From Myxococcales bacterium LLY-WYZ-16_1 (GTDB taxonomy: Bacteria; Myxococcota; Kuafuiibacteriia; Kuafuiibacteriales; Kuafuiibacteriaceae): a stretch of 58,999 nt of DNA. Made by a program: the position numbers and the translations under genes. The notes beneath the pieces were generated by a model. That model saw only the letters and a list, made by a program, of their open reading frames with translations. It did not search any database and was not told where the DNA came from. Numbering within the stretch: position 1 is the first letter of the stretch; each line of letters starts with the position of its first letter. The DNA lies in assembly GCA_031800475.1 (NCBI GenBank), contig DAPKRQ010000278.1, forward strand, positions 1 through 58,999, given 5' to 3'. Of the stretch, positions 10,665 to 58,306 are shown in pieces.

Positions 10665-11444
10665 TCAGGCGGGGTGCTCGCCGCTTTCGTGGGAGCGAAT
10701 GGCCCACTTCCACAGCACCATGTCCGGCACCGGGAGGGCCAAAAACAGGTGCTCCAGCACGGCCAGGGCGAGCATGGTTGCCACCAGACTGAGGCCGATG
10801 GCCTCGAATCCTCCGGTGGGCGCCGACATGGCCCGGCCGGTCAAAAAGCCGACCACGCCAGAGCCCACCCCGACCGAGATGGGCATGAGCGGATTCAGGT
10901 CGGCCTTTCGAAAGTAGCTCTTCAGGTAGGCCAGGTGAGGAGGGATGATCTCGACGGCCAGGTTGCGCACACCCCAGAAGATGTTGAACTTCGCGCTGAT
11001 GCGCATGGTCCAAAGCACCCACAGGGTCATCGTCCCGACCTGATTCGGGCCGTTCCAGGTCAGCGCCACCACCGCGGCCAGCGTGGCGGCCAGCGCGACC
11101 TCGTGATGGATCACCGTCTCGGTCGCGCAACGAAATCGCTCGAACCCCCGGGCGCCGGGGGGGCAAGCCGTCTTGCGGGGACCCGTGATCAGACCCATCA
11201 AGAACGTGAGCTCGTGCCACCCCCAGACCACCACGGCCGAGCAGAACGCCACGTAGGCGCCGAACACGGTGTCGTCTGCGCTGCTGACCGCCAATCCATA
11301 GACCGCCGCCAGCCCCGCCACCGTGGTGAGCGCCAAGCTGACGCGAAACGTCCGCGGGGGAAGACCGTCGATGTAGATCAGCACACCGGTGCTGAACCAC
11401 CACAGGAACATGGCGGACGCGGAAGCGAGGACGATGTCGACCAT
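10665..11444 (-). CDS. puhE: photosynthetic complex assembly protein PuhE
   Basis: LWWFSTG, WGWHELTFLMG.ITGPR, RISAKFNIF.GVRN, ALLEH-like AVLEHLFL motif. Position after acsF. Start could be GTG 11459. Confidence 0.9.
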   Translation of the reverse strand: MVDIVLASASAMFLWWFSTGVLIYIDGLPPRTFRVSLALTTVAGLAAVYGLAVSSADDTVFGAYVAFCSAVVVWGWHELTFLMGLITGPRKTACPPGARGFERFRCATETVIHHEVALAATLAAVVALTWNGPNQVGTMTLWVLWTMRISAKFNIFWGVRNLAVEIIPPHLAYLKSYFRKADLNPLMPISVGVGSGVVGFLTGRAMSAPTGGFEAIGLSLVATMLALAVLEHLFLALPVPDMVLWKWAIRSHESGEHPA

Positions 11445-11452
11445 CGAGGTGC

Positions 11453-12541
11453 TTACCACGCCGGCTGAAGCCGGCTCGTCTCCGGGAGGGTGTTCTTCTT
11501 GACCGGCAGGAAGTACAGCCGCGCGAATGTGGCCACCGCCTGGGCCTGCAGCCCGAGCACCTTCACCCGGTTCCACAAACCCCCTTTCCGCTTGGCATCG
11601 TCAATCTTGGTGGCGATTCGAACCATGCGGTCCAGATTCGCTTTGAACGCGGGGTTGTCCAAGTCGAGCAAGACCGGAAAGACCTGCTTGCAGATCTCGA
11701 GAGTGATTCGAAAGACCTGCATACCGTATTCGCTCGGATCGATTCCCAAAGCCTCGTGGAAGGCGTGCCGATGGTGATCGCGCACGTACATGGTGGCAAA
11801 GACGGCGAGCTGGAAGAATCGAATCCAGAGCTTGTTGGTGCCCTGGAGAAGCTTCGGATTGGCCCGCATCAACAGCGCGAAGGCCTCACCGTGCCGGAAT
11901 TCGTCGTTGCACCACTCTTGGAACCACTTGAAGATCGGGTGGAAGCGATGCTCCGGGTTCCGCTGCAAGTGCCGGAAGATGGTGATGTAGCGGGCGTATC
12001 CGATTTTCTCGGACAGGTAGGTCGCGTAGAAGATGAACTTCGGGCTGAAGAAGGTGTACTGCTTCGACCGGGTCAAAAAGCCCAGGTCTACGCCCATGTC
12101 GAAGTCCTTCAGACTGTCGTTGATGAACCCCGCATGCCGAGCTTCGTCCCGGCTCATGTACTTGAACAGGGCGCAGATGTCCGGGTTGGTGCCGCGCTTG
12201 CGCATCTCCGCGTAGAGCACGCAGCCCGAAAACTCGGCCGTCAGGGAACTGACCAAAAAGTCTAGGAACTCCTTCTTGAGATCCTCATCCAATTTGGACG
12301 TGTCCAGATCCCACTCTTCGGTTCGCTTGAAGTGACCCTTATTTGGGTCGCTGGCCATTTCGGCGATCAGCTCGTCCCATTCGGCCCGCACCGGACTGAC
12401 GTCCATGCGGTCCAGTTCGTCATAATTGGTCGTGTAGAACCGCGGACTCAACACCGTGGTCTCTTGCGCCTTTTGGGTGCTGGCGTTGACGTTCTTTTCG
12501 GTGCGATGTCGGGGCTTCATGTCGAGTTCGGCGATGGTCAT
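11453..12541 (-). CDS. acsF: aerobic Mg-protoporphyrin IX monomethyl ester cyclase
   Basis: [48 protein letters not shown] di-iron motifs. Confidence 0.97.
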
Positions 12542-12840
12542 AGCGTTCTCCGTTCCGTGAAGCTCACGTCGAGCAAATCAAGGCACTCCAGGTTGCCGAC
12601 GAGTTTGGTCCACTGGCGCTCGAGCCAGTTGGCTCGAGTCACCGTGGCCGTCCGACGCTCCACCACCCGCTCTCCGAAGGGCGGGTGGATCGGCCGGCCG
12701 TGGATCAGAACCTGATCGCCAGGTTCCATCTGAATGCCCCCGTCCAAATCGACGTGGGCATGAAGGCTTTCGAAGGTATGCGAGACGTCGACGGTACAGC
12801 CGGTCTCGAAGACCCGTCGGCGCAGCAGATTCCAGTTCAC
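12538..12840 (-). CDS. conserved small PGC protein between puhC and acsF
   Basis: [29 protein letters not shown]...FGE...[15 protein letters not shown] pattern. Translationally coupled on both sides. Confidence 0.8.
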
Positions 12841-13325
12841 GGTGTGCCTCCATTCATCGCCTGCTCGGGGCCCGAGGGCGCGTCCAGCAGGCGAGCGAAA
12901 CTATCGAGGTTCGTCGGACCAAAGGCGTTCAGGTAGACGACCCGGTCCGTGGACGGGTCGTGCAAGGACAGGCGCCCGTCGGCCCAGTGCGTGAGGGTGT
13001 ACGGGGCATCCGGCTGTGCGCCTTCGAGCATGCGCTGCCGGTCCATACCCCGCACGACCCCCCAGATGAAGCCCTGAGAGCCCATTTCGAACTCCGCGAT
13101 CAGGGTGTCGGACCGACCTCGATACACGGCGATGGAACCGTCCGGCCGTTCGTCGAACCGAACCTGGACCGCCTGCACCGGTTTCGTGTCGGGGACCTCG
13201 ACCACCCCGTAGCCCGTGGTGCGGGCCACCGCCACGATCCCGATGGTGAACAGGATCAAAGCGCCGGCTGCGACCAGCACGCCCTTCGGAAAGGGTCGGT
13301 TGCCATGTGGATCCGACATGTTCAT
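12837..13325 (-). CDS. puhC: photosynthetic complex assembly protein PuhC
   Basis: FPKGVL + TM, GFIWGVVRGM.RQR, DGRLSL.DPST, LNAFGPTN. Confidence 0.92.
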   Translation of the reverse strand: MNMSDPHGNRPFPKGVLVAAGALILFTIGIVAVARTTGYGVVEVPDTKPVQAVQVRFDERPDGSIAVYRGRSDTLIAEFEMGSQGFIWGVVRGMDRQRMLEGAQPDAPYTLTHWADGRLSLHDPSTDRVVYLNAFGPTNLDSFARLLDAPSGPEQAMNGGTP

Positions 13326-13350
13326 CTACTCCTTCGTCCATTGCGTTCGG

Positions 13351-14019
13351 TCACGCTGACGCGAACCCGGCCATGGGGTTCGGAGTCGAACGCTCCGACG
13401 ATTCACTTTCGACCGAAGATGCGGCTGCGGCAGTCTGCTGATCATGGGCTTCGCGAAGGGCGTCGCCCAGCAGCTCCGCCACCTTTTTGCCCTCTGGAAC
13501 GCACCGCATCATCGGCTGCGTGGGGTTGTACTTCCACGGCCGGGTGTGAGGCCACAGATGCAAGAAAGCGAGGTTGCCCGTGCCGGCCATCTCCAGCGGA
13601 ATCTCGCCCGCACCGCTTTTGTCCGGCTTGAACAGCGCCGACTTCACCTGTTTGAAAGGCAGGTTGACCGCCATGGTCAGGGCGATGCCGTACCGAAGCA
13701 CCACGCGCCGGTTCGTGATCGTGTAGATCGTGGTCCGTGCGTTCCAGTAGGCCAAGCCGACCAGTACGGCCACCAGGACCACTCCGACCGGAACGAGCGA
13801 CAGGGAAGCGAGGACGGCGCCTCCGAGGGTCGCGCCCTCGGAAGCGGCAACCAAGCCTCGCACGACCACCAGGGCGGCGAAGTAGAACGCCGCGGCTCGG
13901 GCGTGAAACACCCGGCGGGCCATGACTTTCCAGTCCGGCTGGCCCTGCCACAGAATGTACTCACCTGCCGGAAGCAGCTCCGGCAGACCTTCGATCGGTT
14001 CGTATTCGAATTCTTTCAC
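13351..14019 (-). CDS. puhB: photosynthetic complex assembly protein PuhB
   Basis: EPIEGLPELLPAGEYILWQGQP, TIYTITNRRVV.RYGIAL, LWPHTRPW...PQPMMR-like segment. Confidence 0.93.
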   Translation of the reverse strand: MKEFEYEPIEGLPELLPAGEYILWQGQPDWKVMARRVFHARAAAFYFAALVVVRGLVAASEGATLGGAVLASLSLVPVGVVLVAVLVGLAYWNARTTIYTITNRRVVLRYGIALTMAVNLPFKQVKSALFKPDKSGAGEIPLEMAGTGNLAFLHLWPHTRPWKYNPTQPMMRCVPEGKKVAELLGDALREAHDQQTAAAASSVESESSERSTPNPMAGFASA

Positions 14020-14786
14020 AGCAGCGGCCCCATCCGGGAAGCCTTCCCGTACAGCTTTCCTCCGGCGAAGAACGCCTGGATCTTCTCTTCTTCGAGTATG
14101 GTCACCTGGTCCGCCTTGGCGAGGCGCGGAACCTTCGGAAAGTGCTCCGACATCAGGGCTTGGACATGAACGTACTTCTTCTTTTCACCCTGAATCCGAA
14201 GCATGGTGACGGGGATCAGTACGTTGGATCCGCCCTGCAGCGTCGCCTCCAGGTAGCGCACCTGGTTTTCGCTGCGGTCGACCCAGATGTCCTTGATTTT
14301 GCCGACCGACTTCTTGTCGCCCGCAAACACCTCCATGCCGCGGGGATCCTCCTTTTGCTTGGCCACGTCGTACTCGTTGCTGGCCCTCAGAGGCATCAAC
14401 GCGGGTTTGCCGTCTCGGGTGAGCTCCGGTTCGTCGTGACGTTCCGCCCAAGAGGCCGGGCCGACGCCGTCGACCATCGGGTCTCCGGTGGGCTCATACG
14501 GTGATCCAGGCCATGGCGCGACCCGCTTGATCTTGTGGTTGCGGGTGTCCCGCTTGTCGTTTGGAGCGAAATAGCTTCCACCCTCGGGGAGCTTGTACTC
14601 CTTGGGCTTCGCCATCAGGATCTTGTTCTTCTTGCCGACCTGTCCGGTGAGGTCGGTCTCCAGCGGATAGCCTTCTCGCCGATCCTCCCGGCGGATGTAG
14701 AAGACCAAGCCCGCGAAGAAGAGCCAGAAGATATAGAGTGTGACTTGAGCGACGTCGATGTAACCTGTGAGTGCACCCGTAGGCAT
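14016..14786 (-). CDS. puhA: reaction centre H subunit
   Basis: GALTGYIDVAQVTLYIFWLFFAGLVFYIRREDRREGYPL, PTGDPMVDGVGPASWAER, PRC barrel, TILEEEKIQAFFAGG.LY. Confidence 0.97.
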   Translation of the reverse strand: MPTGALTGYIDVAQVTLYIFWLFFAGLVFYIRREDRREGYPLETDLTGQVGKKNKILMAKPKEYKLPEGGSYFAPNDKRDTRNHKIKRVAPWPGSPYEPTGDPMVDGVGPASWAERHDEPELTRDGKPALMPLRASNEYDVAKQKEDPRGMEVFAGDKKSVGKIKDIWVDRSENQVRYLEATLQGGSNVLIPVTMLRIQGEKKKYVHVQALMSEHFPKVPRLAKADQVTILEEEKIQAFFAGGKLYGKASRMGPLL

Positions 14787-14807
14787 CTTGAACTCCTTTG
14801 GCTGGAA

Positions 14808-16241
14808 TCAGCCAGGCAGCTCGGCCAATCCGAACCGCGATGGGGATCCTCCCGGATCCTTGAAACGACGAACGAGCGGTCCGATCGCGACCAGCGACGC
14901 GAACAACAGCCCGATTTCGATGTGGTAGACGACACAATATCCCGCCGCTGGACCGGTGAGGGCGGGGCCCAGGTATCCGCGCGCAGCCAGGTCACCCAGC
15001 ACGTCCCGGATCGCTCCACCCATGGCCAAACCTCCGCCGGCGGCTGTGGCTTGCACGGCTCCCCAGGCTCCGAGAGCCAGGCCGCTCCCACCGGTCTCGG
15101 ACAGTCCCATGGCAGCGGTCAGTGTACCCACTGCGAACAACCCGCCGCCAAAGCCGATGAAGAAGGTCCCGGCTCGAAACAGCAGGACCGAGTTCAGGGG
15201 ATCGGCAAAGATCACCGCCGAGAACGCCCCGATCCCCGCGAGAGCGCCCATGGCAGCCAGAAAGAACGGATCGTGGTCGCGGCTCAGTGCTCGAGCCGCG
15301 AGAGCCAGGCCCAACAGCGTTCCCCCCGCCAAAATGGCCGTCAAGAAAGTCGTGTCCGACACCGACAGGTTCAGCACCTCGCCGCCGTAAGGCTCGAGCA
15401 AGATGTCTTGCATGCTGAAGGCGGCGGTGCCCAAACCGACGATCACCAAGAGGCGACTCGCTTTGCCGCCGGCCGAAAACTCTGCCCAGGACTCGGCGAA
15501 GCTGGGTCGAGGCCGGTCGGGGGCAGTCCGGCTCGGGTCTCTCGCTTCCTGCTTCCACAAAGCGACTGCGTTGAGCACCAGGGTCAGACCGGCAGCGCCT
15601 TGAATGACCTGAATCAGCTTGACGGATCCGAAGTCGGCCAGGAGCACCCCGAACGCCAGCGCGCTTCCCAGCATGCCGACGAGCAGCATCACATACAGGA
15701 GTGCAACAACCCGAGGCCGCGAGTCCTCCGGTGCGTTGTCGGTGGCCAAGGCCAGCCCGGCGGTCTGGGTGGTGTGCAGGCCGATCCCGGTCACCAAGAA
15801 GGCGACGGCCGCGCCGATCTCTCCCGCCAACGGCGGGGCGTTCACGGCGTCGCCCGACAGGATGAGCAGCGCGAAGGGCATGATCGACAGGCCCCCGAAT
15901 TGAAGCATCGCGCCCAGCCAAATGTACGGGATGCGCCGCCAGCCGATGACCGAAGCATGATTGTCCGATCGAAATCCGACCAGAGCTCGAAACGGGGCGA
16001 AGAGCAGAGGCAGGGACACCATGGTGGCCACGAGCCAGGCGGGGATGCCCAGCTCGATGATCATCACCCGGTTGAGGGTTCCGTTCAACAGAACAGTGGC
16101 CATGCCCACCGAAATCTGGAACAGGGACAACCGCAAGAGCCTTCCGAGCGGCAGCTCGTCGGTGGCCGCATCGGCGAACGGCAGCAGGCGTGGGCCCACC
16201 TTTCGCCAAGCGCGGACGATGCTGTCGTTCCAGGTCTTCAT
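14808..16241 (-). CDS. lhaA: LH1 assembly protein LhaA (PucC/BCD-family MFS)
   Basis: LPFADAAT.ELPLGRLLRLSLFQ, GTLNRVMIIEL, MQDILLEPYGG. Lies between bchM and puhA. Confidence 0.92.
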   Translation of the reverse strand: MKTWNDSIVRAWRKVGPRLLPFADAATDELPLGRLLRLSLFQISVGMATVLLNGTLNRVMIIELGIPAWLVATMVSLPLLFAPFRALVGFRSDNHASVIGWRRIPYIWLGAMLQFGGLSIMPFALLILSGDAVNAPPLAGEIGAAVAFLVTGIGLHTTQTAGLALATDNAPEDSRPRVVALLYVMLLVGMLGSALAFGVLLADFGSVKLIQVIQGAAGLTLVLNAVALWKQEARDPSRTAPDRPRPSFAESWAEFSAGGKASRLLVIVGLGTAAFSMQDILLEPYGGEVLNLSVSDTTFLTAILAGGTLLGLALAARALSRDHDPFFLAAMGALAGIGAFSAVIFADPLNSVLLFRAGTFFIGFGGGLFAVGTLTAAMGLSETGGSGLALGAWGAVQATAAGGGLAMGGAIRDVLGDLAARGYLGPALTGPAAGYCVVYHIEIGLLFASLVAIGPLVRRFKDPGGSPSRFGLAELPG

Positions 16242-16929
16242 GCCCGTGTGACCTCCAGCGCTTGCGAGGTATAAAAGCCTCGCTGAATCCGGCGGGTCCG
16301 GCCCGGAGTCCATCCGACCAGGGCTTCGCTTCGGTCCATTCGCCGAAGCAGGCCCCGGGCCGAGATAGGCTCGATGGCCGGGGCTCGGTCGCTTCGGGGG
16401 AACAGTCGACCGACGGCGTGCATGGCCGACAACAGAACCGTACGCGGGGCGAAGGTGAACAACACCTGGTAGGTCGAAAGTTCCGCCAATCGCTCGATCA
16501 TGCGAACCATGTCGTGGGCCTGGTAGTGGATGAGCGAATCCATGGCCACCACCCGATCGAAGTGGCCAAGGGACGGATCCATCATGTCACCCACCCGAAA
16601 GTCGATGTGGACATCGTTCGGGAGTCGCTCTCGAGCCACCCGTACCAGGTTCTCCGCCAGATCGATGGCGACCACTTCGGCGCCGCGCCGGGCCGCTTCG
16701 ACCGCCAACATGCCCGTGCCGCAGCCTGCGTCCAGGATCCGCTGACCCGACAGATCCGCAGGCATCCAGTCCAGGAGGGTCTGGCGCATCTCGTCTCGTC
16801 CAGCCCGGACCGTCGCCCGAATCCGGCTGACCGGAGCGTCCGAGGTGAGCAGGGCCCACGCCTCGGCCGCTGTCCGGTCGAAGTAGGTTTCGAGCTGGCT
16901 CCGGCGCCGCTGGTAGGAGAGGGCCTTCA

Positions 16930-16930
<1 letters not shown>
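16238..16930 (-). CDS. bchM: Mg-protoporphyrin IX O-methyltransferase
   Basis: LETYFDRTA, VSRIRATVRAGRD, LDAGCGTG, AMDSLIHY. ATG 16930. Confidence 0.96.
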
Positions 16931-17832
<902 letters not shown>

Positions 17833-17859
17833 CTACCTGCCTTTTGCTCTTTTGGAGGC

Positions 17860-20800
17860 CTAAGCGGCCACCGCGCTGTTTCCGATACCCTCGAGCCGGT
17901 CTTCGAGTTCGGCTCCCGCTTTCCGGAGTGCTTCGAGGGTCGATGGGTCCGGCTCCCAGTAGGAGCGCTCGTGGGCTTCGAGCAGCCGGTTGGCCAGCTT
18001 CACCGACGCCTTCGGGTTCAGCTGAGCCAGCCGCTCTCTCATTTCGGGGTCCAGAACGTAGGTTTCCGACAGCTGCTGGTAGACCCACGGCTGAACTTGG
18101 CCGGTCGTCGCCGACCAGCCCATGGTGTTGGTGATGCTGGCTTCGATCTGGCGGACGCCCTCGGAGCCGTGCTGAAGAAGGCCTTCGTACCACTTGGGGT
18201 TGAGCATGCGGGTTCGGCTTTCCAGGGTGACCTGTTCGCCGAGGGTCCGAACGGTGCCCTCACCCCGGGTGGTGTCTCCGATGTAGACCGGCACGTCCTC
18301 GCCGCTGGCGCGGCGCACTGCCCGCCCGATTCCACCCAGGGTATCGAAGTAGTGATCGATGGTCGTGACGCCCAGCTCGACCGATTCCAGGTTCTGGTAG
18401 GTGAGCTTCACGCCGGACAGGACGCTCTTGAGCATTTCCTCCTGGCGAACGGGCCGCCCGGAGCGGCCGTAGGCAAAGCACTTGCGCCGGCTGTAGGCTT
18501 CAGCCAACTCGTCTTCTTCGTTCCAGGCGCCGCTGTCCACCAGTTGGTTCACGTTGGAGCCGTAGGCTCCGTCGGCGTTGCTGAAGACCCGCAGGGCGGC
18601 GGTCTCCATGTCGCAGCCCTGCTCCCGTTGAAAGCGCAGGCTGTTGCGCCGGATGTGGTTCATCTCCTCCGGCTCGTCGGCCGTCGCCGCCAGATACGCG
18701 GCCTCCGCCAGCATCCGGGTCTGAAGGGGCATCAGGTCTCGGAAGATGCCAGACAAGGTGACCATCACGTCGATCCGGGGCCGGCCCAGTTCCTCGAGTG
18801 GGACGAGCTCCGCCCCGGCCAGTCTGCCGTAGCCGTCGAAGCGGGGTTTGGCGCCGATCAGCGCCAAGACCTGACCGATCGGTCCGCCTTCGGTCTTCAG
18901 ATTGTCGGTGCCCCACAGGACCAGGGCCACCGAGTCGGGGAGCGGATGCCCGTCGGCCGTATACCGATCCAGCAGCTTTCGGGCCTGGCGCTCCCCTTCT
19001 TTGACCGCGAACTTGCTCGGGATCCGGAATGGGTCGAAGCCGTGGACGTTGCGTCCGGTCGGCAGGATGTCCGGGGTCCGAAGCAGGTCTCCTCCCGGGG
19101 CGGGTCGAATGAATCGCCCGTCCAGGGCCCGCAGGAGTGCCTCGATCTCCGGGTTCGTTTCGAGCAGAGCGGCCGTCTTCGACAGCTCCTCGAACAACTG
19201 CACGTCCTCGGCGGTGGGCTCCACCCCCGCTGCCGTCCACGCCTCTTTGGGCGAGCTGCCGAGGACGAGAGCCCTTACCGCGTCCTCAGGCGGGCGGGTG
19301 CCGCTCGAGGCTTCGGCCATGGCCAGGAGCTGATCGGTTCTCTCCTGCTCGGAACCAGGTTCTCCGAGTACGTGGAGGCCGCAGGGGATCAGCGTGTCCT
19401 GAACTTCTTGCAGCTCGTCGGACACCCGTTTCACTTCGGTCTCGTCCGTCCAGGCCGGTTCGGCATCCGCGAGCTCGAGCTCGGCGGCCTGGGCCTGAAT
19501 CAGCTCCAGCAGGCGCTCCCGCTCCGACACGTCCTCCGGGGGCAAACCGCGCCAGCGGTCGATGGACTCCTTGAGCTCCAGAAGACCCTTGTAGATGCCG
19601 GCTTGGGCCACCGGCGGGGTCAGGTAGCTGATCAGGGTGGCGGCCGCCCGGCGCTTGGCGATCGTGCCTTCCGAAGGGTTGTTGGCTGCGTAGAGGTAGA
19701 TGTTGGGCACGTCGCCGATCAGGCGATCCGGCCAACAGGTGTCGGACATGCCGCACTGCTTGCCGGGCATGAACTCCAGGGCCCCGTGGGTGCCGAAATG
19801 CACGTAGGCATCGGCGCCAAAGTCCTGCTGCAGGTAGCGATAGAAAGCCGAAAAGGCATGGGTCGGCGCGAAGCCCGATTCGAACAGCAAGCGCATCGGG
19901 TCGCCCTCGTAGCCGAAAGCGGGTTGCAGACCGACCATCACGTTGCCGAATTCCGCCCCGAGAACGAGCAGAGAGGCACCGTCCGTCTGTTCCCGGCCCG
20001 GCGCCGGGCCCCATTGGGCTTCGATCTCCTTCAGGTACTTTTCCTTGCGGACGTGGTCGTCCACCGACACCCGGGCGCAGACGTTGGCGTCGGTGCCGTA
20101 CTGCTCGGCATTGCCTTGGACGATCCGGTCACGGAGCTCGTCGACGGTGGCCGGAACCTCCACCCGGTATCCCTGGACCTTCAGGGCCTGCAGGGTCCGG
20201 TGCAGGGACTCGAACACCGACAGGTAGGCGGCGGTGCCCGTGGCTCCGCTGTTCGGGGGGAAATTGAACAAAACGATGGCGACCTTTCGTTCGCTCCGGG
20301 GCTTGACCCGCAGCGAAGCCCAGCGCGCTACCCGTTCTGCCAGGGTGTCGACCCGGTCCCCGACCGGCAGCATGGCCCGGTCCGCACCGTCTTGGCCGGG
20401 TCGACCGCCGAACACGATCCGGCCGGTGGCGCCGTCGAGCTCGGGGATCGCCACCATGATGGTGGACTCCACGGGCAGCAGACCGCGGCCCGAGTCCTGC
20501 CACTCGCGGACGGTCTGGAACTCCAGGGCCTGGCCCGAGATGTAGGGTACGTCGAGCTGGTCCAGAAGCTCTTCGGCAGCGGCCGAGTCGTTGAAGGCAG
20601 GGCCGCCGACCAAGGAGAAGCTCGTCAAGGAGACCAGGGCGTCGATCTCGGTCTTGCCGTCTTTTCTGAAGAAGGCTTCGACGGCGGGCCGGGCGTCCAG
20701 ACCGCTGGCGAACGCCACCCGGACCGCGAATCCCCGCTCCTCGAGGGCGCGGACCACTGCGTCGTAGTGCGCGCAATCTCCGGCCAGAATGTACGAGCGC

Positions 20801-23299: not shown

Positions 23300-23303
23300 C
23301 GGG

Positions 23304-25148
<1,845 letters not shown>

Positions 25149-40702: not shown

Positions 40703-40708
40703 CACGTG

Positions 40709-42651: not shown

Positions 42652-42661
42652 GGAGGTTGCC

Positions 42662-49981: not shown

Positions 49982-50265
49982 TTCGGCCGGCCGGTCTCGC
50001 CGCCGTCTGCGAGCCGACCCCCGCTTTCCTTTCCTTTCTCTTCTGTACGGATTTTCGACCTGTCTCGCCGCGAGTCGCGGCCCCGTGAAAAGGTTCCCGT
50101 TGACGGGAAGCGGCCGACGGCCCAAACGACCCCGGTGCCGGCGACGCTCGCAAGGGAAGGCCCAACCTATCTCCCCTCGATGACAGAGATTTCGGCGGTT
50201 CTGCCGGAGTGGGCGGCAGGATTTGGGCTGCTCTTTTCGATGGACGCCGAAATCTCGGCTGCGCC

Positions 50266-50295
50266 TTGCAAACCCTAAATTTGCGGTGCTAGCGT
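50266..50295 (+). promoter_or_regulatory. possible sigma70-type promoter for the act operon
   Basis: TTGCAA-N18-TAGCGT with TG extension, ~60 bp before actA. Confidence 0.3.
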
Positions 50296-50356
50296 CCCGC
50301 CGCGCTTGGGACTGGGGGGTGATGACCGAACCCCACCCTGGAGGAGGCCGTTTTCC

Positions 50357-51004: not shown

Positions 51005-53892
51005 CTCGAGAAACGATTTCCGCTGCCGGGCCCCACAATCCCGGCCGACGCAACTTTCTGTCCGCCGTGGGCGCAACCGTTGCGAGCCTCCAGACCGCGG
51101 CTTGCATTCGGAAGCCCTACGAAAAGATCCTTCCCTACGCCGAGCGTCCAGAAGACCTGGTGCCCGGCGAAGCCCGCCACTACGCCACCGTGTGGAACGT
51201 GGGCGGCGCCGTGCAGGGCCTGCTGGTGCGCTCCACCGACGGCCGGCCCACCAAGGTCGACGGCAACCCGAACCACCCCATGACCGGGGGGTCGACGATT
51301 TGGGCTCAGGCCTCGGTCCTGTCCTTGTACGATCCCGAGCGCTCGAAGGAGCCGGTTCGCGAGGGGGAGGGCGTCAGTCCCGATGAGGCCGTCGGATTCT
51401 TGAAGAAGTTGCCCGACGAGATCGGCGACGGTTCGGGCCTCGCGGTCGTGGTGCCGGAGCTTCCGTCGCCCACCGCCGATCGACTCTGGGAAGACATTCG
51501 AGCGAAGTATCCAAAAGCCGAGCTGTACCGTTTCGACGGTGCCGGCACCGACCATGCCCGAGCGGGTGCTGCCATGGTGGGTATCGAAGGCGCGGCCTGG
51601 ACGACCGATGGCACGCCGACGGTGATCGCTGCCTTCGATGCCGATCCGATCGGGACCGAAGGCGACACCACTGCATTCACCAAGGCGTTCGCGGCGGGTC
51701 GAGACCCGAACAGAAAGCCGGCTGAGGCAAACCGCCTGTACGTGGTCGAGCCGCACGTCTCGATCACTGGCTCCAACGCCGACCACCGCATGGCGGTGAA
51801 AGGTTCCGAGGTTGGCGATTTCCTGGCCGCCCTGGCGCACCACCTCAAGAAGGGCGGGCTGAACGTCCCGACCCTGGACGCGCCGAAAGACAAGCTCGAC
51901 TCGAAATTCGTCAAGGCGTTGGCGAAGGATCTGCTGTCGCGAAAGCGTGGAAGCACGATCGTGATGGTCGGCGAGCGGCAGCCCGCCCACGTTCATGCGC
52001 TCGGGTTCGTGTTGAACGAAGCGCTCGGAAACTTCGGCAAGACCCTTCGCTTCACCAAGCAGGGACCGACCGAGGTGGGCGCACTTTCGGACCTGGTTCG
52101 GCGCATGAACGATGGATCGGTAAAGCAGCTGGTCGTCATGGGCAGCAACCCGGTCTACGAAGCTCCGGCGGATCTGAACTTCGGCGAGTTGTTCCAGAAG
52201 GTCCCTCTGACGATTCACCTGGGCTTGTATCGGGATGAAACGGGCCGCCTCGCCACTTGGCACATTCCGCAGAGCCACTATCTGGAGTCCTGGGGTGACC
52301 TGCGGGCCCGGGAGGGCACGACGGCCATCCAGCAGCCGCTGGTCGCGCCCCTATACCCGTCGTTGTCCCCGATCGAATTCATGGCTCGCCTGACCGGAGC
52401 CGAATCGAAGGGCTACGATCTGGTTCGTGCCACCCACCAGGGGGCTATCTCCGGTGGTTTCGACAAGCGCTGGCAGCGGTGGCTTCACGACGGCGTCGTC
52501 GACGTGGGCCAGGCCCCGTCGTTCGTCCCGAGCGTGAAGACCGATGGGTTGGCCGCAGCATACAAGTTCCGGGCCGAACGAGCGCAAGGGCTGGAGCTCG
52601 CGTTCGTGCGGGACAACGCGGTTCTCGACGGTCGCTTTGGCAACAGCCCGTGGCTGCAGGAGCTGCCCGATCCGATCACCAAGATCGCGTGGGACAACGC
52701 GGCTGTGGTCTCACCGAACACGGCCGAGAAGATCGGTGTCCCGAACAACCTCGAGCAGTCGTCGGTGCGCGATACCGTCATGGTGGACGTGTCGGTGGGC
52801 GGCGAGACCGTGCGCCTGCCGGTCTGGGTGCAGCCCGGCACTGCCGAAGACGTGGTCGTGCTGTCGCTGGGGTACGGGCGCAAGCACGGCGGCAAGTTCG
52901 CGAAGTCGGGCTTCGACGTGAACTCCCTCCGAACCGCCGAATCGCCGTACATTCGGAGCGGTGCGAAGGTGACGCCCACGCGAAAGGGCTACGCGGTGGC
53001 GTGCATGCAGCCCGAAGCGAGCATGCACGACCGGCCGATCGTCCGGGACGCCACCCGTGGCGACTTCACCGATGAACCGAACTTCGTCGAGAAGTTCGAG
53101 GTCATGGACGAGGACCACGTTGCTAGCCTCCTTTGGGACGAACCAGAGTACACGGCCGAGCACCAGTGGGCATTGACCATCGACCTGAACTCCTGCGTCG
53201 GCTGTGGTTCGTGCACCGTCGCCTGCCAGGCCGAAAACAACATTCCGTGGGTCGGCAAGGAAGACGCGCTCAAGGGTCGCGAGATGCACTGGATTCGGAT
53301 CGATCGCTATTTCGAGCCGAAGCACTCGGACCAGGTGGAAGTGCGGTACCAGCCCATGGCCTGCGTGCAGTGCGAGACCGCTCCCTGCGAGAACGTGTGT
53401 CCCGTCGGTGCGACGGTCCACGGACCCGAAGGCCTGAACAACATGGCGTACAACCGCTGCATCGGCACCCGGTACTGCAGCAACAACTGCCCGTACAAGG
53501 TGCGGCGCTTCAACTTCTTCCATTACACCGTGCGGAACGACGCGGACTACGGCATGGGCATCGCAATGCAGCGCAACCCGGACGTGACGGTCCGCTATCG
53601 AGGCGTGATGGAGAAGTGCACGTACTGCGTGCAGCGCATCAACAAGGCACGGATCCACGCCAAGGTGAACGGCGACGGCATCATCCCGGATGGCACGGTG
53701 AAGACCGCCTGCCAGGAGGCTTGCCCGGCCGACTGCATCACGTTCGGGAACATCCGGGACCCGGACAGCAAGGTGTCCCACACCCGAGAAGATCCTCGAA
53801 ATTATGCCGTGCTCTCCGAGCTGAACCTTCGGCCCCGGACCACCTACCTGGCGAAGTTGACCAACCCGAACCCGGATTTGGCAGAAGGGTGA
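51001..53892 (+). CDS. actB: ACIII subunit B (molybdopterin-oxidoreductase-like domain plus Fe-S domain)
   Basis: RRNFL Tat motif and [33 protein letters not shown], four Cys clusters ([33 protein letters not shown]). Confidence 0.93.
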
Positions 53893-53899
53893 ACTGACG

Positions 53900-55327
53900 A
53901 TGGATATGCGAGTTTCGCGAGACCCCGTGGACCGGCGGCCGTTGTTGGTCAACCCGCCCACGGACTACAACGGCGTCACGGAGGCGGTGGCCGCGCCGAT
54001 CGAATGGAAGACCCCCATGGGGTGGTGGATCTTCTTTTTGGTCTCGGCCGTCTTCGCGGCGATGTACGCCGGGAGCACCGCTTACCTGATCTGGGAAGGA
54101 ACCGGCATCTGGGGCCTGAACGTCCCGGTGGCCTGGGGCTGGGCCATCGTCAACTTCGTGTTCTGGGTCGGTATCGGTCACGCCGGGACGCTGATCTCGG
54201 CGGTGTTGTTCCTGTTCCGTCAAAAGTGGCGAACCAGCATCAACCGGTTCTCCGAAGCCATGACCATCTTCGCGGTGGTCTGTGCGTTGTCGTTCCCGAC
54301 GATCCACGTGGGCCGCATCTGGCTGCTGTACTGGGTGTTCCCCGTTCCGAACCAGATGGGCGCGTGGCCTCAGTTCCGAAGCCCGCTGCTGTGGGACGTG
54401 TTCGCGGTGAGCATCTACGGAACGGTGTCGGTCCTGTTTTGGTACACGGGATTGGTGCCCGACCTCGCCACCATGCGGGACCGGGTGAAGTCGAAGGTCG
54501 CCAAGTTCGCCTACGGAATCTTCGCGCTGGGCTGGACGGGTTCCACCCGCCACTGGCGACACTACGAAACCGCCTACATGCTCCTGGCCGGGCTCGCGAC
54601 CCCGCTGGTTCTGTCCGTGCACTCGGTCGTTTCGTTCGACTTTGCGGTGTCGCAGCTGCCCGGCTGGCACACCACGATCTTTCCCCCGTACTTCGTCGCC
54701 GGCGCGATCTTCTCCGGATTCGGCATGGTGCTCACGCTGATGTTGGTGTCTCGGGTGATATTCAAGCTCGAGCACATCGTTACGATGCACCACCTGGACA
54801 ACATGGCGAAGGTGGTCCTCTTGACCGGCATGATCGTGGGCTACGCCTACGGCATGGAATTCTTCATCGCGTGGTACGGCGGCAACGAATACGAGATGTT
54901 CGCCTTCATCAACCGGGCCTTCGGACCCTATTGGTGGGCGTACTGGAGCATGGTGAGCTGTAACGTCCTGATTCCGCAGGTCCTGTGGTTCAAGACGATC
55001 CGGCACAACGTGGCCGCGCTCTTCGTCCTCTCGATCTTCGTGAACATCGGAATGTGGTTCGAGCGCTACGTCATCGTGATCACCTTGAGCCGAGACTTCC
55101 TGCCGTCGAGCTGGGACATGTTCTATCCGACGGTGTGGGACTGGGCGGCGCTGCTCGGAAGCTTCGGCCTGTTTTTCACCCTGTTCTCGCTGTTCGTGCG
55201 GTTTCTGCCCATGGTCGCCATGGCTGAGGTGAAGAGCGTGATGCCCGAGTCCGACCCGCATCACGAGCCCGATGAAACGGAAGCCGCCAAACAACCGGCC
55301 ACCGCCACCGCAGGAGGTGCATCGTGA
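53900..55327 (+). CDS. actC: ACIII quinol-binding NrfD-family membrane subunit
   Basis: [65 protein letters not shown]. Confidence 0.94.
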
Positions 55328-55863
55328 GTTCTTCGAACAAAGTGTTTGCCGCCATCGGCGAGTTCTCGACGGTGAAGGAGATCTGGCACGCCTGCGAAAA
55401 GGTGCGAGATTCGGAGTTTACCAAGTGGGACGCCCACACACCCTTCCCCGTTCACGGGCTCGAGCACGCCATGGGGATGGGTCGGTCTCGCCTGCCGTTC
55501 TTCGTGTTCGCCATGGGCATCACGGGGGCGGCGGGAGCCTTCGCGCTGCAGTCGTGGATCTCGACCACCGCGTACCCGATCATCATCGCCGCCAAACCGT
55601 ACTTTTCGTGGCAGGCCTTCATCCCGGTGACGTTCGAGGTGATGGTGCTGTTCTCCGCGGGCAGCGCGGTGCTGGGCATGCTGTTTTTGAACCGCTTGCC
55701 GCGCTGGTGGAATCCGCTGCTCGAGTCGGAGACCTTCAAGCAGGTCACCAACAACAAGTTCATCATTTCGATCGAGGCCAGTGACCCGAAGTTCGACCCG
55801 GACGAGACGCAGGAGTTCCTGCGCTCCCTGGGAGCGAGCAAGGTCGAACTGGTCGAGGAGTAA
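55324..55863 (+). CDS. actD: ACIII subunit D (DUF3341)
   Basis: [11 protein letters not shown], two TMs, AFIPVTFE. Confidence 0.9.
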
Positions 55864-55868
55864 GACCG

Positions 55869-56513
55869 ATGCGAGCGTACACCTTCACCGTCGTCTCGCT
55901 GGGGGCAGTCGCCGCGGTCGCCTGCGACCCGTACGGGAAGTTCGAGCGGCCCCCGATTCACCTGCAGCAAAACATGGACTTTCAGCGCTACTTCGAGGCG
56001 CAGGAAGAAAACCCGTTCTACTCGGACAAGCGGGCCATGCGCCCAGAGGTCGAGGGCACGGTGGCGGTCGGGCAACTGCGTGACGACCCCCATCTGTACC
56101 TGGGCAAGGAGAGCGAGGACGCCGAAGACTGGGTCCGCACCCTGCCGGCCCAGGGACCGGACGGGAAGCCGATCGAGGTCGACGAAGCGTTTTTGGCCCG
56201 AGGCAAGGAGCGATTCGGGATCTATTGCGCCGTATGTCACAGTGCCAGCGGCATCGAGCATGGCACTGCAGTGCAGCGCGGCATGCTGCCGCCGCCCAAG
56301 CTCAATGACGAGCGGTTGCTCACCATGCCGGTCGGCTATTTCTACGACGTGATCACCAACGGCGTTCGCAACATGCCGCCCTACGCTTCCCAGATCCCAG
56401 TGAAGGATCGCTGGGCCATCGCGGCGTACGTCCGGGTGCTGCAGCGGCGCTATCAGGCCCCGTTGGCGCAGGTGCCGGACGAGGTGGCTTCCGAGAAGGG
56501 ATGGAAGAACTGA
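55869..56513 (+). CDS. actE: ACIII monoheme cytochrome c lipoprotein
   Basis: AVAC lipobox, MDFQ, GTVAVG, RGKERF.IYCAVCH, MPPY..QIP..DRWAIAAYVR.LQ. Confidence 0.9.
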   Translation: MRAYTFTVVSLGAVAAVACDPYGKFERPPIHLQQNMDFQRYFEAQEENPFYSDKRAMRPEVEGTVAVGQLRDDPHLYLGKESEDAEDWVRTLPAQGPDGKPIEVDEAFLARGKERFGIYCAVCHSASGIEHGTAVQRGMLPPPKLNDERLLTMPVGYFYDVITNGVRNMPPYASQIPVKDRWAIAAYVRVLQRRYQAPLAQVPDEVASEKGWKN

Positions 56514-56514
56514 C

Positions 56515-57726
56515 ATGGGTCGCATGAAGTCGATACCGGAGGACACGAACCTCCGACTGTCCGGGGTGTGGACGTCGTTTCCGAAAATCCTCGGAGGCAT
56601 CGGTCTCGCCAGCCTGGTCCTGGCGTTCATCATCGGGGCCGTGGGCGGTGAGCACGGCATCGAGCGCTTTCACTTCTCGTACCTGACGGCCTACATGTAC
56701 GGGCTCAGCTTCGCCCTCGGGGGGTTGTTCTTCGTGATGGTGCAGTTCCTCGCGAGGGCGGGTTGGAGTGTGGTCGTCCGCCGGGTTGCGGAGAACGTCA
56801 TGGGGACGTTGCCGCTGTTCGCGGTGCTGTTCATTCCGGTCGCCGTCGGGCTGCACCATACCCATCACCACTGGTGGGGCGTCGAGCCGGGTCACGACCA
56901 TCTGGTGGACCACAAGGCCCCGTACCTGAACCAGCCGTTCTTCTTCATCCGCGTGATCTTCTACTTTGCCGTGTGGATCTTCTTGGCTCTGACCTTCTGG
57001 CGGAGCTCCACCCGACAGGACGAGACGGGCGACCACGAGCTCACGCACAAGATGCAGTGGTGGTCGGCTCCCGGGATGCTGCTGTTCGCGTTGACGGTGA
57101 CCTTCGCGGCCATCGACTGGATGAAGTCGATGGAACCTCACTGGTTTTCGACGATGTGGGGCGTCTATTTCTTCGCCGGTTGCGTGATCGCCATCTTCTC
57201 GATGCTCTCGACCCTGATCATTGCGCTGCAGCGCACGGGTCACTTGCAGAAGGTCATCAATGCCGAGCACTTCCACGACCTCGGAAAACTATCGTTCGGG
57301 TTCGTGGTGTTCTGGAGCTACATCGCGTTCTCGCAGTACTTCCTGATCTGGTACGCGAACATTCCGGAAGAAACGCTGTGGTTCGAGCATCGATACCACC
57401 ACGGTTGGGAAACGGTGGGGGCCTTGCTCATCGTGGGGCACTTCTTCATTCCGTTCTTTTTCCTGCTCCCGCGGGGCATCAAACGGAATCCGGCCACCCT
57501 CATCATCGGTGCGGCATGGCTACTGTTCATTCACTATGTGGACATTTACTACATCGTCATGCCGGTGTTCAGTAAAGGTCCGCAGCCGGGCATTCTGGAT
57601 CTATTGTGTCTCGTAGGGGTGATGGGGCTGTTCTTGGCCACGTTCTCGGCACTGGCGAGTCGGTCCGAGCTGGTGCCGGTCAAGGACCCGCGACTCCCCG
57701 AGTCGTTGGCGTTCCACAACGTCTGA
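56515..57726 (+). CDS. actF: ACIII membrane subunit F
   Basis: AGWSVVVRR, YLNQPFF.IR, DWMKSMEPHWFST, HDLGK, FSQYFLIWYANIPEE. Confidence 0.92.
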   Translation: MGRMKSIPEDTNLRLSGVWTSFPKILGGIGLASLVLAFIIGAVGGEHGIERFHFSYLTAYMYGLSFALGGLFFVMVQFLARAGWSVVVRRVAENVMGTLPLFAVLFIPVAVGLHHTHHHWWGVEPGHDHLVDHKAPYLNQPFFFIRVIFYFAVWIFLALTFWRSSTRQDETGDHELTHKMQWWSAPGMLLFALTVTFAAIDWMKSMEPHWFSTMWGVYFFAGCVIAIFSMLSTLIIALQRTGHLQKVINAEHFHDLGKLSFGFVVFWSYIAFSQYFLIWYANIPEETLWFEHRYHHGWETVGALLIVGHFFIPFFFLLPRGIKRNPATLIIGAAWLLFIHYVDIYYIVMPVFSKGPQPGILDLLCLVGVMGLFLATFSALASRSELVPVKDPRLPESLAFHNV

Positions 57727-57736
57727 AAGAAGCATC

Positions 57737-58306
57737 ATGCGTATCTCGAAGCGAAACATTTGGTCTGCTGCCGGCACCGTGGTGTTCGTGGCCGGTTGCC
57801 ATGGGCCGCTGCCGGTCAACCACGATGAACACCCGAAGTGGGTCGAGTTCCGGGACGAGCAGGAGGAGCTTCTGAGCTCCTACGCCCAGGTCGATGCAGA
57901 AGAGGGTGTGTACCAGATTCCCGTGGATCGGGCCCTCGCCATGGTGGCCGACGACCCGAGCCTGCTGGAGCCGGTGGTAGAGCCGGTGAAGGCCAAGCCC
58001 ATCGAAGAGATGACCCTGGTGGAGCGTGGTGAGTACCACTTCAACAACACCTACGTGTGCGCGTCCTGCCACGCCTTCGATGGATCCCGGAAGGTGGGCC
58101 CGCCGCTGAACGACCGGTGGGGCGAAAAAGCGCTCCTCGAAGGGGGCGAAGAGGTGGTCTTCGACGACGAATACTTCCGGGAGTCCGTGTGGTACTCCCG
58201 AAAAAAGATCGCCCGGGGCTATCCGGCCGCCATGCCCGTGTTCGAAGGCCAGATGACCGAAGAGGACTACGAGGCCATCAAGGCCTACGTCAAAACCTAC
58301 CAGTGA
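57737..58306 (+). CDS. ActG-like / monoheme cytochrome c fusion lipoprotein
   Basis: VAGC lipobox, LLSSYAQVD..EGVYQIPVDRAL (ActG-like), then CASCH..DGSRKVGP...DDEYFRESV...GY.AAMP (cytochrome c). Confidence 0.75.
   Translation: MRISKRNIWSAAGTVVFVAGCHGPLPVNHDEHPKWVEFRDEQEELLSSYAQVDAEEGVYQIPVDRALAMVADDPSLLEPVVEPVKAKPIEEMTLVERGEYHFNNTYVCASCHAFDGSRKVGPPLNDRWGEKALLEGGEEVVFDDEYFRESVWYSRKKIARGYPAAMPVFEGQMTEEDYEAIKAYVKTYQ

Follow-up and report, generated by a model that had tools for sequence, protein, structure and literature searches.

The window analyzed here is one entire contig of 58,999 nucleotides from a 5.3-Mb MAG (386 contigs, 93.67% complete; G000), whose host is a probable phototrophic myxobacterium. 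In this contig a purple-type photosynthesis gene cluster (PGC) runs from puhE to pufBALMC, and the genes of an alternative complex III (ACIII) follow it (Table 1). The PGC is proteobacteria-like, and PufL, PufM, PuhA, a tetrahaem PufC and an LH alpha/beta pair are encoded together, as expected of a purple-type RC-LH1. PufC consists of a tetrahaem domain and a 202-aa Ala/Glu-rich tail, and matches the reaction center (RC) cytochrome subunits of the PDB with E 1e-110. Upstream of bchI, crtE and bchC there are PpsR-type TGT-N12-ACA palindromes, at 33382, 38578, 38604 and 40659. As far as the available parts of the two papers go, the PGCs described in phototrophic Myxococcota, the same kind of organism, share this layout (bchIDO, crt-bchCXYZ, pufBALMC), and the bchG-lhaA-bchP order, also seen in the window, is described there as occurring in Ca. 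Kuafubacteriaceae alone (Li et al. 2023, PMC10576062; ISME Commun 2026, PMC13043013). In the same parts, the words cytochrome, ACIII, bc1 and complex III are absent from the main text of PMC10576062, and ACIII and complex III are not mentioned in the text of PMC13043013.

Table 1. Features of the locus and independent contigs that cross the pufC-actA junction
Feature	Coordinates	Strand	Evidence or remark
puhE, acsF, small ORF (12538-12840), puhC, puhB, puhA, lhaA/PucC	10665..16313	-	NCBIfam equivalogs: AcsF 504 bits, PuhC 159, PuhB 224
puhE	10665-11576	-	NCBIfam equivalog PuhE 272 bits
puhA (RC H subunit)	14016-14786	-	NCBIfam equivalog PuhA 341 bits
lhaA/PucC	14808-16313	-	Pfam PUCC 468 bits
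bchM, bchL, bchH, bchB, bchN, bchF	16238..25096	-	NCBIfam: BchL 447 bits, BchH 2129, BchB 822, BchF 197; Pfam Mg-por_mtran_C; Oxidored_nitro in frame 23304-25010
AerR/PpaA-like B12-binding protein	25267-26217	+	weak corrinoid-protein matches
ppsR (PpsR/CrtJ repressor)	26129-27688	+	NCBIfam PpsR-CrtJ 474 bits
bchG (UbiA family)	~27830-28620	+	Pfam UbiA; start approximate
PucC/MFS-like gene	28624-29967	+	start approximate
bchP	ends 31214	+	BchP-ChlP 504 bits; start approximate
HiPIP	31826-32335	+	PDB HiPIP 3h31 (E 7e-18), 1isu; inside PGC
alpha/beta hydrolase, bchI, bchD, bchO-like, crtE, crtF, bchC, bchX, bchY, bchZ	32407..45603	+	
segment between bchO-like and crtE	37.3-38.6 kb	+	no gene name given
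pufB	46025-46249	+	read from translation only
pufA	46265-46453	+	Pfam LHC
pufL	46536-47360	+	Pfam Photo_RC 320 bits
pufM	47379-48350	+	Pfam Photo_RC 343 bits
pufC	48347-49981	+	CytoC_RC 464 bits; 4 CxxCH
pufC-actA spacer	49982..50356	+	375 bp; promoter-like motif, Shine-Dalgarno
actA	50357-51004	+	multihaem Pfam families; 5 CxxCH
actB	50992-53892	+	Fer4 families; full-length PDB matches
actC	53900-55327	+	Pfam NrfD 91.6 bits
actD	55324-55863	+	Pfam ActD 212 bits
actE	55869-56513	+	Cytochrome_CBB3; 1 CxxCH
actF	56515-57726	+	PDB ActF E 4e-95
monohaem cytochrome c (last gene of the module)	57737-58306	+	Pfam Cytochrome_CBB3, Cytochrom_C; 1 CxxCH
bridging contig X6 record 19	48126-53510		
bridging contig X3 record 13	49608-53523		
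bridging contig X9 record 26	48164-50572		

The act operon (50357..57726, forward strand) is a complete, uninterrupted ACIII set, actABCDEF, with intact frames, and no actG was seen in it. ActA has the N-terminal hydrophobic segment and the haem-binding motifs of a membrane-anchored pentahaem cytochrome c, while ActB combines a molybdopterin-like domain with an FeS-cluster domain, bears a Tat motif (RRNFL) and 18 Cys, and matches four solved ACIII (6f0k, 6lod, 8k9e, 6btm) over its full length. There are two NrfD-like membrane subunits, ActC and ActF, the latter without any Pfam match and also weakly matching ActC chains in the PDB, and ActD is accompanied by a monohaem ActE. The operon is predicted to encode an enzyme that oxidizes quinol and reduces cytochrome c or HiPIP. 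The cytochrome c encoded behind actF has a lipobox (VAGC) and a linker of ~70 aa; its haem part is similar to the cytochrome c domain of a caa3 oxidase subunit II (1w2l, E 3e-14), the protein also weakly matches a cytochrome cy fusion (6xkx, E 0.0075), and the ORF beyond it is convergent. The HiPIP that the initial annotation had placed within the PGC is confirmed by its PDB matches. Its translation, inspected by eye, appears to have a signal of the Tat type, an LIGC lipobox and a linker of ~90 aa rich in Lys, Glu and Ala; the protein is probably a membrane-tethered electron carrier.

All coordinates agree with the earlier claim that pufC is followed after 375 bp, on the same strand, by actABCDEF and a cytochrome c gene: the actA start common to the relatives is the GTG at 50357, which sets the limits of the spacer. 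This spacer contains a motif, TTGCAA (50266-50271), 18 nt, TAGCGT (50290-50295) with TG ahead of TAGCGT, that may act as a promoter, and a putative Shine-Dalgarno sequence, GGAGGAGG, at 50341-50348. The motif is alignable in all five genus-g1 genomes, and the remainder of the spacer is not. Neither a consensus sigma-70 site, a convincing terminator nor a PpsR-type palindrome was found in these 375 bp, which fold no better than shuffled sequences (z 0.6). Given this separate promoter-like motif and the lack of a PpsR-type palindrome, co-transcription or co-regulation of act with puf or the PGC can only be presumed. A misassembly at ~50 kb had been named as a possible source of the linkage, the puf and act halves then coming from different organisms through assembly or binning. 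The MAG is fragmented, and GC drops slightly across 44-48 kb, which would fit such an artefact. However, independent Logan contigs from three other runs, belonging to other studies, bridge the junction and together cover 48.1-53.5 kb, excluding a misassembly, and the same junction recurs in seven more genomes and on a contig of a named Myxococcota MAG, making an artefact hardly credible.

To describe the linkage across the phylum, we used a sample of 401 genomes, 20 of them RC-bearing; all are MAGs, so that absences are to be read as “not found.” The pufC-actA junction is present in 8/8 RC-bearing genomes of three genera, g1 (5), g2 (2) and g11 (1), so that the other refuting outcome named in the initial annotation, a non-conserved adjacency, did not arise; in G001 the act operon is divided over contigs, with the junction itself on a single contig. 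It was found in none of the 12 other RC-bearing genomes of the sample, and linkage is therefore not needed for phototrophy in the phylum. Elsewhere, of 41 metagenome actA loci that reach 2.5 kb or more upstream, none had puf genes, and of 80 pufM loci taken from named genomes, one had act genes in the retrieved flank. Chance alone would not account for the adjacency. Synteny 3′ of the module is common only to the closest pair, G003 and G004, among the seven genomes compared, indicating that the block was kept while its flank turned over. The three genera are related to each other, and part of the conservation could reflect inheritance. A rival reading has the PGC inserted, or otherwise brought to lie, beside a resident respiratory ACIII operon in the ancestor of the three genera, the adjacency having no functional meaning and the linked ACIII being an ordinary respiratory quinol:cytochrome c/HiPIP oxidoreductase that feeds some oxidase. 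A single event in one family would cover all eight cases, and the 12 RC-bearing genomes that do without linkage, as well as the promoter-like motif and the missing PpsR site of the linked operon, fit this reading. Against it, the junction has persisted through the turnover of its flank (except in the closest pair) and although ActB has diverged to 55-59% identity.

The phylogeny of ACIII bears on the same question. The trees against respiratory ACIIIs show the linked copies as one separate paralogue clade inside the native Myxococcota “type A” ACIII, with a long stem (0.33-0.37); its SH-aLRT support is 100 both in ActC trees of 51 and of 81 rows and when ActB (C-terminal part), ActC and ActD are concatenated (46 rows); linked and cox-linked ACIII form separate clades with a support of 99-100. 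ActC was found in 3/25 of the proteobacterial genomes with the most similar PufM, at 40-46% identity. Judged by these trees, the linked ACIII is of the native Myxococcota type and was not brought in with the proteobacteria-like PGC, and it is in this specific sense that the locus can be called chimeric. SCO1-COX2-COX1 lie behind the act operon in 9/9 other operons (six second copies, plus the operons of G010, G018 and G039, which have one copy each) and in 0/7 PGC-linked loci. The linked clade is the only ACIII lineage examined without these genes, and is a paralogue that lost the cox genes carried by every other examined operon. A whole-genome search for other act copies returned a second, cox-linked ACIII in 7/8 linked genomes, including the source genome, where the linked copy is thus not the sole ACIII. 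In G014 it is the only one, and must therefore also serve respiration there, such that the linked copy is not necessarily phototrophy-specific. PGC-type ActC was found in RC-bearing genomes only: in the family, 10 genomes lack an RC, and their ActC is of type A or type B, or there is none. One of these 10 is G016, although G005 and G019, of the same genus, have the linked copy. Nesting within an otherwise cox-linked type, together with G014, would fit a chance juxtaposition with a respiratory ACIII. By contrast, the loss of cox genes from this lineage alone, the retention of a separate cox-linked ACIII, the long stem that sets the linked copies apart from the type A copies of their own family and the fact that none was found in RC-lacking relatives argue against it, and we consider it unlikely. 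Instead, we favor, with a probability of about 0.6, the reading that a dedicated photosynthetic ACIII, as in the Cp/Cr pair of Chloroflexus, serves the LMH-C RC.

Purple-type RCs normally work with cytochrome bc1. The initial annotation had reported no petABC in the window, and indeed neither cytochrome b nor cytochrome c1 was found there; the genome itself, however, has a single PF00033 match, on contig C196, where three consecutive genes encode a cytochrome b of the fused b/subunit IV type (509 aa), a Rieske protein and a dihaem cytochrome c. A canonical bc1 (petABC) was rejected for this module, as the 93.67%-complete genome has no match to PF02167 (cytochrome c1) and a dihaem cytochrome c follows; we classify it as a bc-type complex. 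The consecutive genes of C196, as well as the usual partnership of purple-type RCs, would be in keeping with this module as the photosynthetic quinol oxidase, the linked ACIII then working in another branch, such as one used in the dark, under microoxic conditions or with an alternative acceptor. Yet the module lacks cytochrome c1 and lies on a different contig, away from the PGC, and cytochrome b was not found in 3/8 linked genomes (G001, 100% complete; G003, 96%; G005, 92%), all with the PGC-ACIII block. Moreover, it forms a 5.1-kb island with 92.6% DNA identity between the source genome and G002, compared with ~71% in the PGC/act region, which points to recent exchange. A photosynthetic role for this module appears quite improbable. 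The conserved arrangement suggests that it is the linked ACIII, rather than cytochrome bc1, that completes the electron cycle driven by light. In the source genome MenA reaches 172 bits, above its cut-off, UbiG stays below (best 50.5 vs 103) and MqnA has no match; with MenA but no UbiG, menaquinone is the probable quinone.

We compared the locus with known electron transfer chains. In purple bacteria such as Rubrivivax and Rhodobacter capsulatus, which use cytochrome bc1 and ubiquinone, a HiPIP or the membrane-anchored cytochrome cy operates between bc1 and the RC; re-reduction of a tetrahaem PufC by HiPIP and a c-type carrier tethered through a long linker are features likened here to the source locus. 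The best PDB match of the linked ACIII is that of Rhodothermus marinus (6f0k; ActB E 5e-240, ActF E 4e-95), and the best match of the HiPIP, 3h31, as well as 1w2l, titled cytochrome oxidase subunit II, are entries that we take to be from the same species. The R. marinus chain (ACIII, HiPIP, caa3 oxidase) is purely respiratory and ends in oxygen, whereas the linked operon stands away from cox genes and is attached to RC genes. The photosynthetic ACIII of Roseiflexus castenholzii (6lod/6loe), with cytochrome c551/auracyanin, is a six-subunit ActABCDEF, like the linked operon (ActB E 5e-231, ActF E 6e-65), in an organism of another phylum whose RC has no H subunit. There, according to the available part of the source, a soluble or tethered c-type cytochrome has been proposed as RC shuttle (PMC10873879). 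Chloroflexus aurantiacus, in the accessible part of its description, has two ACIII operons, the photosynthetic Cp (actABCDEFG) and the respiratory Cr, whose 12 genes include SCO1 and cytochrome oxidase, is menaquinone-based, as the source organism probably is, and resembles the source genome in that one paralogue has SCO1/cox and the other, without them, is assigned to phototrophy (PMC3150298). It differs in its H-less L/M RC, its auracyanin and its scattered photosynthesis genes (PMC3150298), whereas the source locus has an LMH plus tetrahaem C RC with LH1, act joined to pufBALMC, no actG seen, and HiPIP and cytochrome c as proposed carriers. The duplications in the two lineages are independent of each other, since the linked copy falls inside the ACIII of Myxococcota.

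In the model that we propose, the RC-LH1 core (PufBALMC and PuhA) would use light to reduce quinone, and the PGC-linked ACIII would oxidize the quinol at ActC/ActF, passing electrons to ActB, ActA and ActE. The lipoprotein cytochrome c and/or the lipoprotein HiPIP could then act as tethered carrier returning electrons to the tetrahaem PufC, while the second, cox-linked ACIII would serve respiration. Of the chimeric light-driven loop put forward initially, the linkage, the paralogue, the tethered carriers, a likely menaquinone and the three of eight genomes without detected cytochrome b all speak in favor, its function being what we infer from them. As for the carriers, the cytochrome c is kept behind actF in G001-G005 (49-60% identity) and has no match in G014, many of the phototrophic relatives have HiPIP genes next to puf or the PGC, and in G014 a HiPIP gene is located directly behind the act operon.

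Reading frames in the window, picked via third-position GC and then scanned against Pfam and NCBIfam, resolve into a purple-bacteria-type photosynthesis gene cluster (PGC), followed by the actABCDEF genes of an alternative complex III (ACIII) and a cytochrome c gene. Frame and profile analysis found the observation, coordinates and 375-bp pufC-actA spacer of the initial annotation to be correct throughout. PufC carries four CxxCH motifs, and ActB and ActF match the corresponding chains in all four solved ACIII complexes. In the frames tested, the 1.3-kb interval between the bchO-like gene and crtE gave no Pfam match. With crtI, crtB, crtC and crtD not found in the window, its PGC lacks part of the carotenoid genes. 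The order bchG-lhaA-bchP, which Li et al. (2023, PMC10576062) describe as confined to Ca. Kuafubacteriaceae, points to that family as a lead only. The source MAG spans 5.3 Mb in 386 contigs (completeness 93.67%), of which the window is one entire contig, C278. The chaperone, thioredoxin-domain, radical SAM and sirohaem synthase genes to the left of the PGC (2623-10553 region) are ordinary housekeeping genes, outside the finding.

Coordinates of the features discussed, in window positions unless a contig or fetched locus (L number) is given
Feature	Location	Strand	Remarks
Lipoyl-synthase-like radical SAM gene	1470-2813	minus	start uncertain, because the frame overlaps DnaK
DnaK	~2623-4536	minus	left of PGC
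Triple DsbA/thioredoxin-domain protein	4834-6858		left of PGC
Sirohaem synthase	9066-10553	minus	left of PGC
PGC, puhE to pufC	10665-49981		Pfam/NCBIfam
puhE-acsF-puhCBA-lhaA-bchMLHBNF	within PGC	minus	Pfam/NCBIfam
AerR-like B12 protein, ppsR, bchG, pucC-like, bchP, HiPIP, hydrolase, bchIDO, crtEF, bchCXYZ, pufBALMC	within PGC	plus	Pfam/NCBIfam
HiPIP	31826-32335	plus	Tat-type signal, lipobox
bchO-like to crtE interval	37308-38614		
pufC start	48347	plus	ATG, overlaps pufM stop
PufC C-terminal tail	49373-49981	plus	202 residues
Promoter-like motif	50266-50295		TTGCAA, 18 nt, TG-n-TAGCGT; ~60 nt before strong Shine-Dalgarno and conserved GTG start
actA (pentahaem), actB, actC, actD, actE (monohaem), actF	375 bp behind pufC	as pufC	all intact
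Monohaem cytochrome c	57737-58306		behind actF; next ORF convergent
Logan contig, run X6, record 19	48126-53510		across junction
Logan contig, run X3, record 13	49608-53523		across junction
Logan contig, run X9, record 26	48164-50572		across junction; population ~96% identical
bc segment of the window's genome	G000:C196:24230-29318 (L004 4231-9319)		5.1 kb
HiPIP of G158	G158:C120:51796-51987		directly behind pufC
HiPIP of G320	G320:C81:10089-10550		directly behind pufC
HiPIP of G014	G014:C2:971466-971738		directly behind act operon
PufC of G018	L101:3019-4416		C-terminal extension
PufC of G010	L100:3189-4595		C-terminal extension
PufM-like fragment of G039	G039:C4:80448-80867		partial, one TAG

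Misassembly at the pufC-actA junction (~50 kb), a danger raised in the initial annotation, is excluded, given that Logan contigs from sequencing runs of other studies run without a break from pufC across the spacer into actA/actB, and that the same junction occurs in the genomes of relatives. The runs in which the region 47400-52400 was detected are metagenomes from marine sediments, microbial mats and tidal flats, with no RNA run listed among them. In structure, the contigs differ from the window only in the PufC tail, where 54 nt are deleted in frame.

Within the spacer, a promoter-like motif is common to all five genomes of the window's genus, the rest being unalignable. Transcription of the act operon thus probably starts from a separate promoter, and read-through from puf may occur as well. 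Over 45.5-51 kb, a sigma-70 consensus scan gave no site and a terminator scan gave matches not above shuffles in a meaningful place; RNA folding of the spacer is no better than that of shuffles (z 0.6). We also searched for TGT-N12-ACA, the PpsR consensus of purple bacteria, which may not hold here, and found 8 sites in the window against 5.4 expected, a count that 17 of 100 shuffles reach. Such palindromes precede bchI, crtE (with two sites) and bchC, but the pufC-actA spacer is free of them. Co-regulation of the act operon through PpsR found no support with this consensus.

In a phylum sample of 401 genomes, 20 of them with reaction center (RC) genes, pufLMC runs into actABCDEF in every one of the five members of the window's genus (G000-G004), including G001, whose act operon is broken across contigs but whose pufC and actA share one. 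Genus g2 shows the same order in its two RC-bearing genomes (G005, G019), as does genus g11 in G014. The adjacency is thus conserved in 8/8 RC-bearing genomes of these genera, as the initial annotation had proposed to examine. It is absent from G010 and G018 (genus g7) and from G039, each with its single act operon elsewhere (no act gene lies within 14 kb downstream of G018 pufC), and in the nine RC-bearing genomes of family f9, ActD lies on other contigs or was not found. The best PufM matches in named genomes include several MAGs titled Myxococcota, Polyangia, Polyangiaceae or Nannocystaceae, among proteobacteria, and a Myxococcota-titled contig (L007) shows the pufLMC-actABC order of the window; on these grounds the source organism is probably a phototrophic myxobacterium in the sense of the phylum Myxococcota. 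Act genes flank just 1 of 80 pufM loci from named genomes. In metagenomes, puf genes stand beside none of 41 actA loci whose upstream sequence reaches 2.5 kb or more, and the best 80 loci of an ActA scan (50-68% identical) include none of the PGC-linked type (ActB at most 50% identical) and none with puf, which shows rarity of the linked type, not absence. Past the module's last gene, among seven genomes compared, only the closest pair (G003/G004) has genes in common, indicating that the PGC-act block is retained while its neighborhood changes. Conservation of this kind could also reflect an inherited adjacency without functional specialization, the main rival reading, which we consider unlikely.

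The window's genome and G001-G005 each contain two ActD genes. Compared with the window's proteins, the PGC-linked copies are 55.5-59.5% (ActB), 72-86% (ActC) and 58-70% (ActF) identical, the second, cox-linked copies of the same genomes 41-43%, 55-63% and 36-38%, and the single copies of G010, G018 and G039 39-44%, 66-68% and 43-49%. We built two ActC trees, with 51 and 81 rows, and one concatenated tree that combines the C-terminal part of ActB with ActC and ActD (46 rows, 1044 columns). The comparison with respiratory ACIIIs proposed at the outset sets the linked copies apart as one clade, with SH-aLRT 100 in each of the three trees, and the second copies form another (support 99-100 in the ActC and concatenated trees). 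With ActF as outgroup, whose branch is very long, the 81-row tree did not resolve at its base. Preference was given to the concatenated tree, in which three proteobacterial sequences, themselves long branches, provide the root. In this tree, the linked clade lies on a long stem (0.37) inside a 23-row Myxococcota ACIII clade (support 97), sister to a genome of another family, f7 (support 96), and not adjacent to the copies of its own family that belong to type A, the common Myxococcota ACIII. Global cluster representatives (best ActC 71% identical, next 59%), clustered at 50% identity and hence too coarse, carry no taxonomy and contributed outgroups only.

The surroundings of the two copies also differ, as SCO1, COX2 and COX1 follow 9/9 non-linked act operons examined and 0/7 linked loci. 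Among the genomes examined, PGC-type ActC was never found in one lacking an RC; in genus g2, the RC-lacking G016 holds the cox-linked type only, and G005 and G019 hold both. Import of the ACIII with the PGC from Proteobacteria was rejected, since, of 25 proteobacterial genomes chosen for the closest PufM, only 3 contain ActC (40-46% identity; all three outside the Myxococcota type A clade) and the linked clade lies in the Myxococcota radiation. A proteobacteria-like PGC combined with a native-type ACIII thus makes the locus chimeric in origin; in this sense the word "chimeric" of the initial annotation is right, the ACIII not having arrived together with the PGC. As a separate observation, type B, the cox-linked ACIII of the linked genomes (L005, on contig C88 of the window's genome, and L091-L095), groups with proteobacterial ActC in the 81-row tree (support 98) and not with type A. 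The concatenated tree, for which those proteobacterial sequences served as the root, does not show this grouping; type B may be of foreign origin.

In the genome, MenA scores over its cut-off, the best UbiG-like match falls far below its own and MqnA has no match, so that the pool quinone of this incomplete genome is probably menaquinone, the usual ACIII substrate. Reading of the translations points to tethered carriers: the HiPIP, which matches HiPIPs in the PDB, combines a Tat-type signal with a lipobox and a long, charged linker, and a lipobox and linker are likewise present in the cytochrome c behind actF; ActE, too, may carry a lipid anchor. This cytochrome c is kept behind actF in G001-G005, with no match in G014. 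Many phototrophic relatives have a HiPIP gene in the vicinity of puf or the PGC. Its place directly behind pufC in G158 and G320, and directly behind the act operon in G014, suggests that HiPIP is the general RC donor in this phylum.

In line with the initial annotation, no bc complex was found in the window. The genome does have a bc-type module: on contig C196, genes for a cytochrome b of 509 aa, a Rieske protein and a cytochrome c with two haem sites follow one another, and a profile search of the genome (93.67% complete) found no cytochrome c1. The search for other act copies likewise brought up the second, cox-linked ACIII on C88. Cytochrome b was found in G002, G004, G014, G018 and G019, and not in G001 (100% complete), G003 (96%) or G005 (92%). 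A segment comprising the bc module and part of the upstream Fer4/pyridine-nucleotide oxidoreductase gene has 92.6% DNA identity to contig C6 of G002, as against ~71% for the PGC/act and other compared DNA of these two genomes; its flanks do not align, and the module copy of G004 is 70% identical. The module looks like a recently exchanged accessory island. In this one genome it might still compete as quinol oxidase; a role of this kind ranks third among the readings and appears improbable.

We favor, with a probability of about 0.6, a dedicated photosynthetic ACIII in a menaquinone-based cycle with the LMH-C/LH1 RC (subunits L, M and H plus tetrahaem PufC) and a tethered HiPIP and/or cytochrome c, the second ACIII-caa3 supercluster being respiratory. 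In a more tentative proposal, to which we give slightly less than an even chance, a Myxococcota lineage would have acquired or inherited a proteobacteria-like PGC, a copy of its native respiratory ACIII would then have been recruited, stripped of its cox partners and welded to the puf operon, and the lipoprotein HiPIP and lipoprotein cytochrome c would act as membrane-tethered carriers running the whole chain. This would be a self-contained menaquinone chain with tethered carriers only and an independent second origin of ACIII-driven cyclic photophosphorylation, with a purple-type LMH-C/LH1 core for the first time and possibly in a hard-wired RC-ACIII supercomplex.

Purple-type RCs are the textbook partners of cytochrome bc1, and phototrophic Myxococcota have been described since 2019-2023. 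To our knowledge, cyclic electron flow through ACIII has been established in no phylum but Chloroflexota, whose RC is H-less, unlike the LMH-C/LH1 core here. The linked and cox-linked copies mirror the Cp/Cr ACIII pair of Chloroflexus aurantiacus (PMC3150298). A literature search returned no paper joining photosynthetic ACIII with phototrophic Myxococcota: the main text of PMC10576062 mentions no cytochrome, ACIII, bc1 or complex III, its figures and supplement (with gene tables including "electron transport") being places that may list or draw act genes, and the text of PMC13043013 mentions no ACIII or complex III, its figures possibly showing act genes without comment. A preprint on Eremiobacterota credits that phylum with a bc complex, and in a survey of Gemmatimonadota ACIII figures solely as an uncommon option for respiration. 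If the favored reading is true, the quinol-oxidizing half of the cycle can be exchanged, and a host with menaquinone and ACIII found its own independent solution to it when phototrophy arrived. The locus, with candidate tethered carriers identified, is a concrete test case of the way in which PGCs that spread horizontally become connected to the electron-transport chain of a host. The PGC-type act operon would then be a marker for predicting functional phototrophy in uncultured Myxococcota, and metabolic reconstructions giving both ACIII copies to respiration would be corrected.

The PufC tail of the window is Ala/Glu-rich, acidic and of low complexity; congeners have PufC without a tail or with a much shorter form, and related populations show in-frame indels of 54, 15 and 9 nt in it. 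It may serve as a periplasmic spacer or docking arm for basic carriers. In genus g7, PufC has a C-terminal extension of ~150 aa, which in G010 has no Pfam match at similar length and in G018 is a Pfam OmpA (peptidoglycan-binding) domain (56.6 bits), apparently tying the RC cytochrome to the cell wall. In G039, which has intact pufLM on another contig, a PufM-like fragment interrupted by one TAG lies ~28 kb from the act-cox operon and ~9 kb from a HiPIP gene, and may be a relic of a second RC locus.
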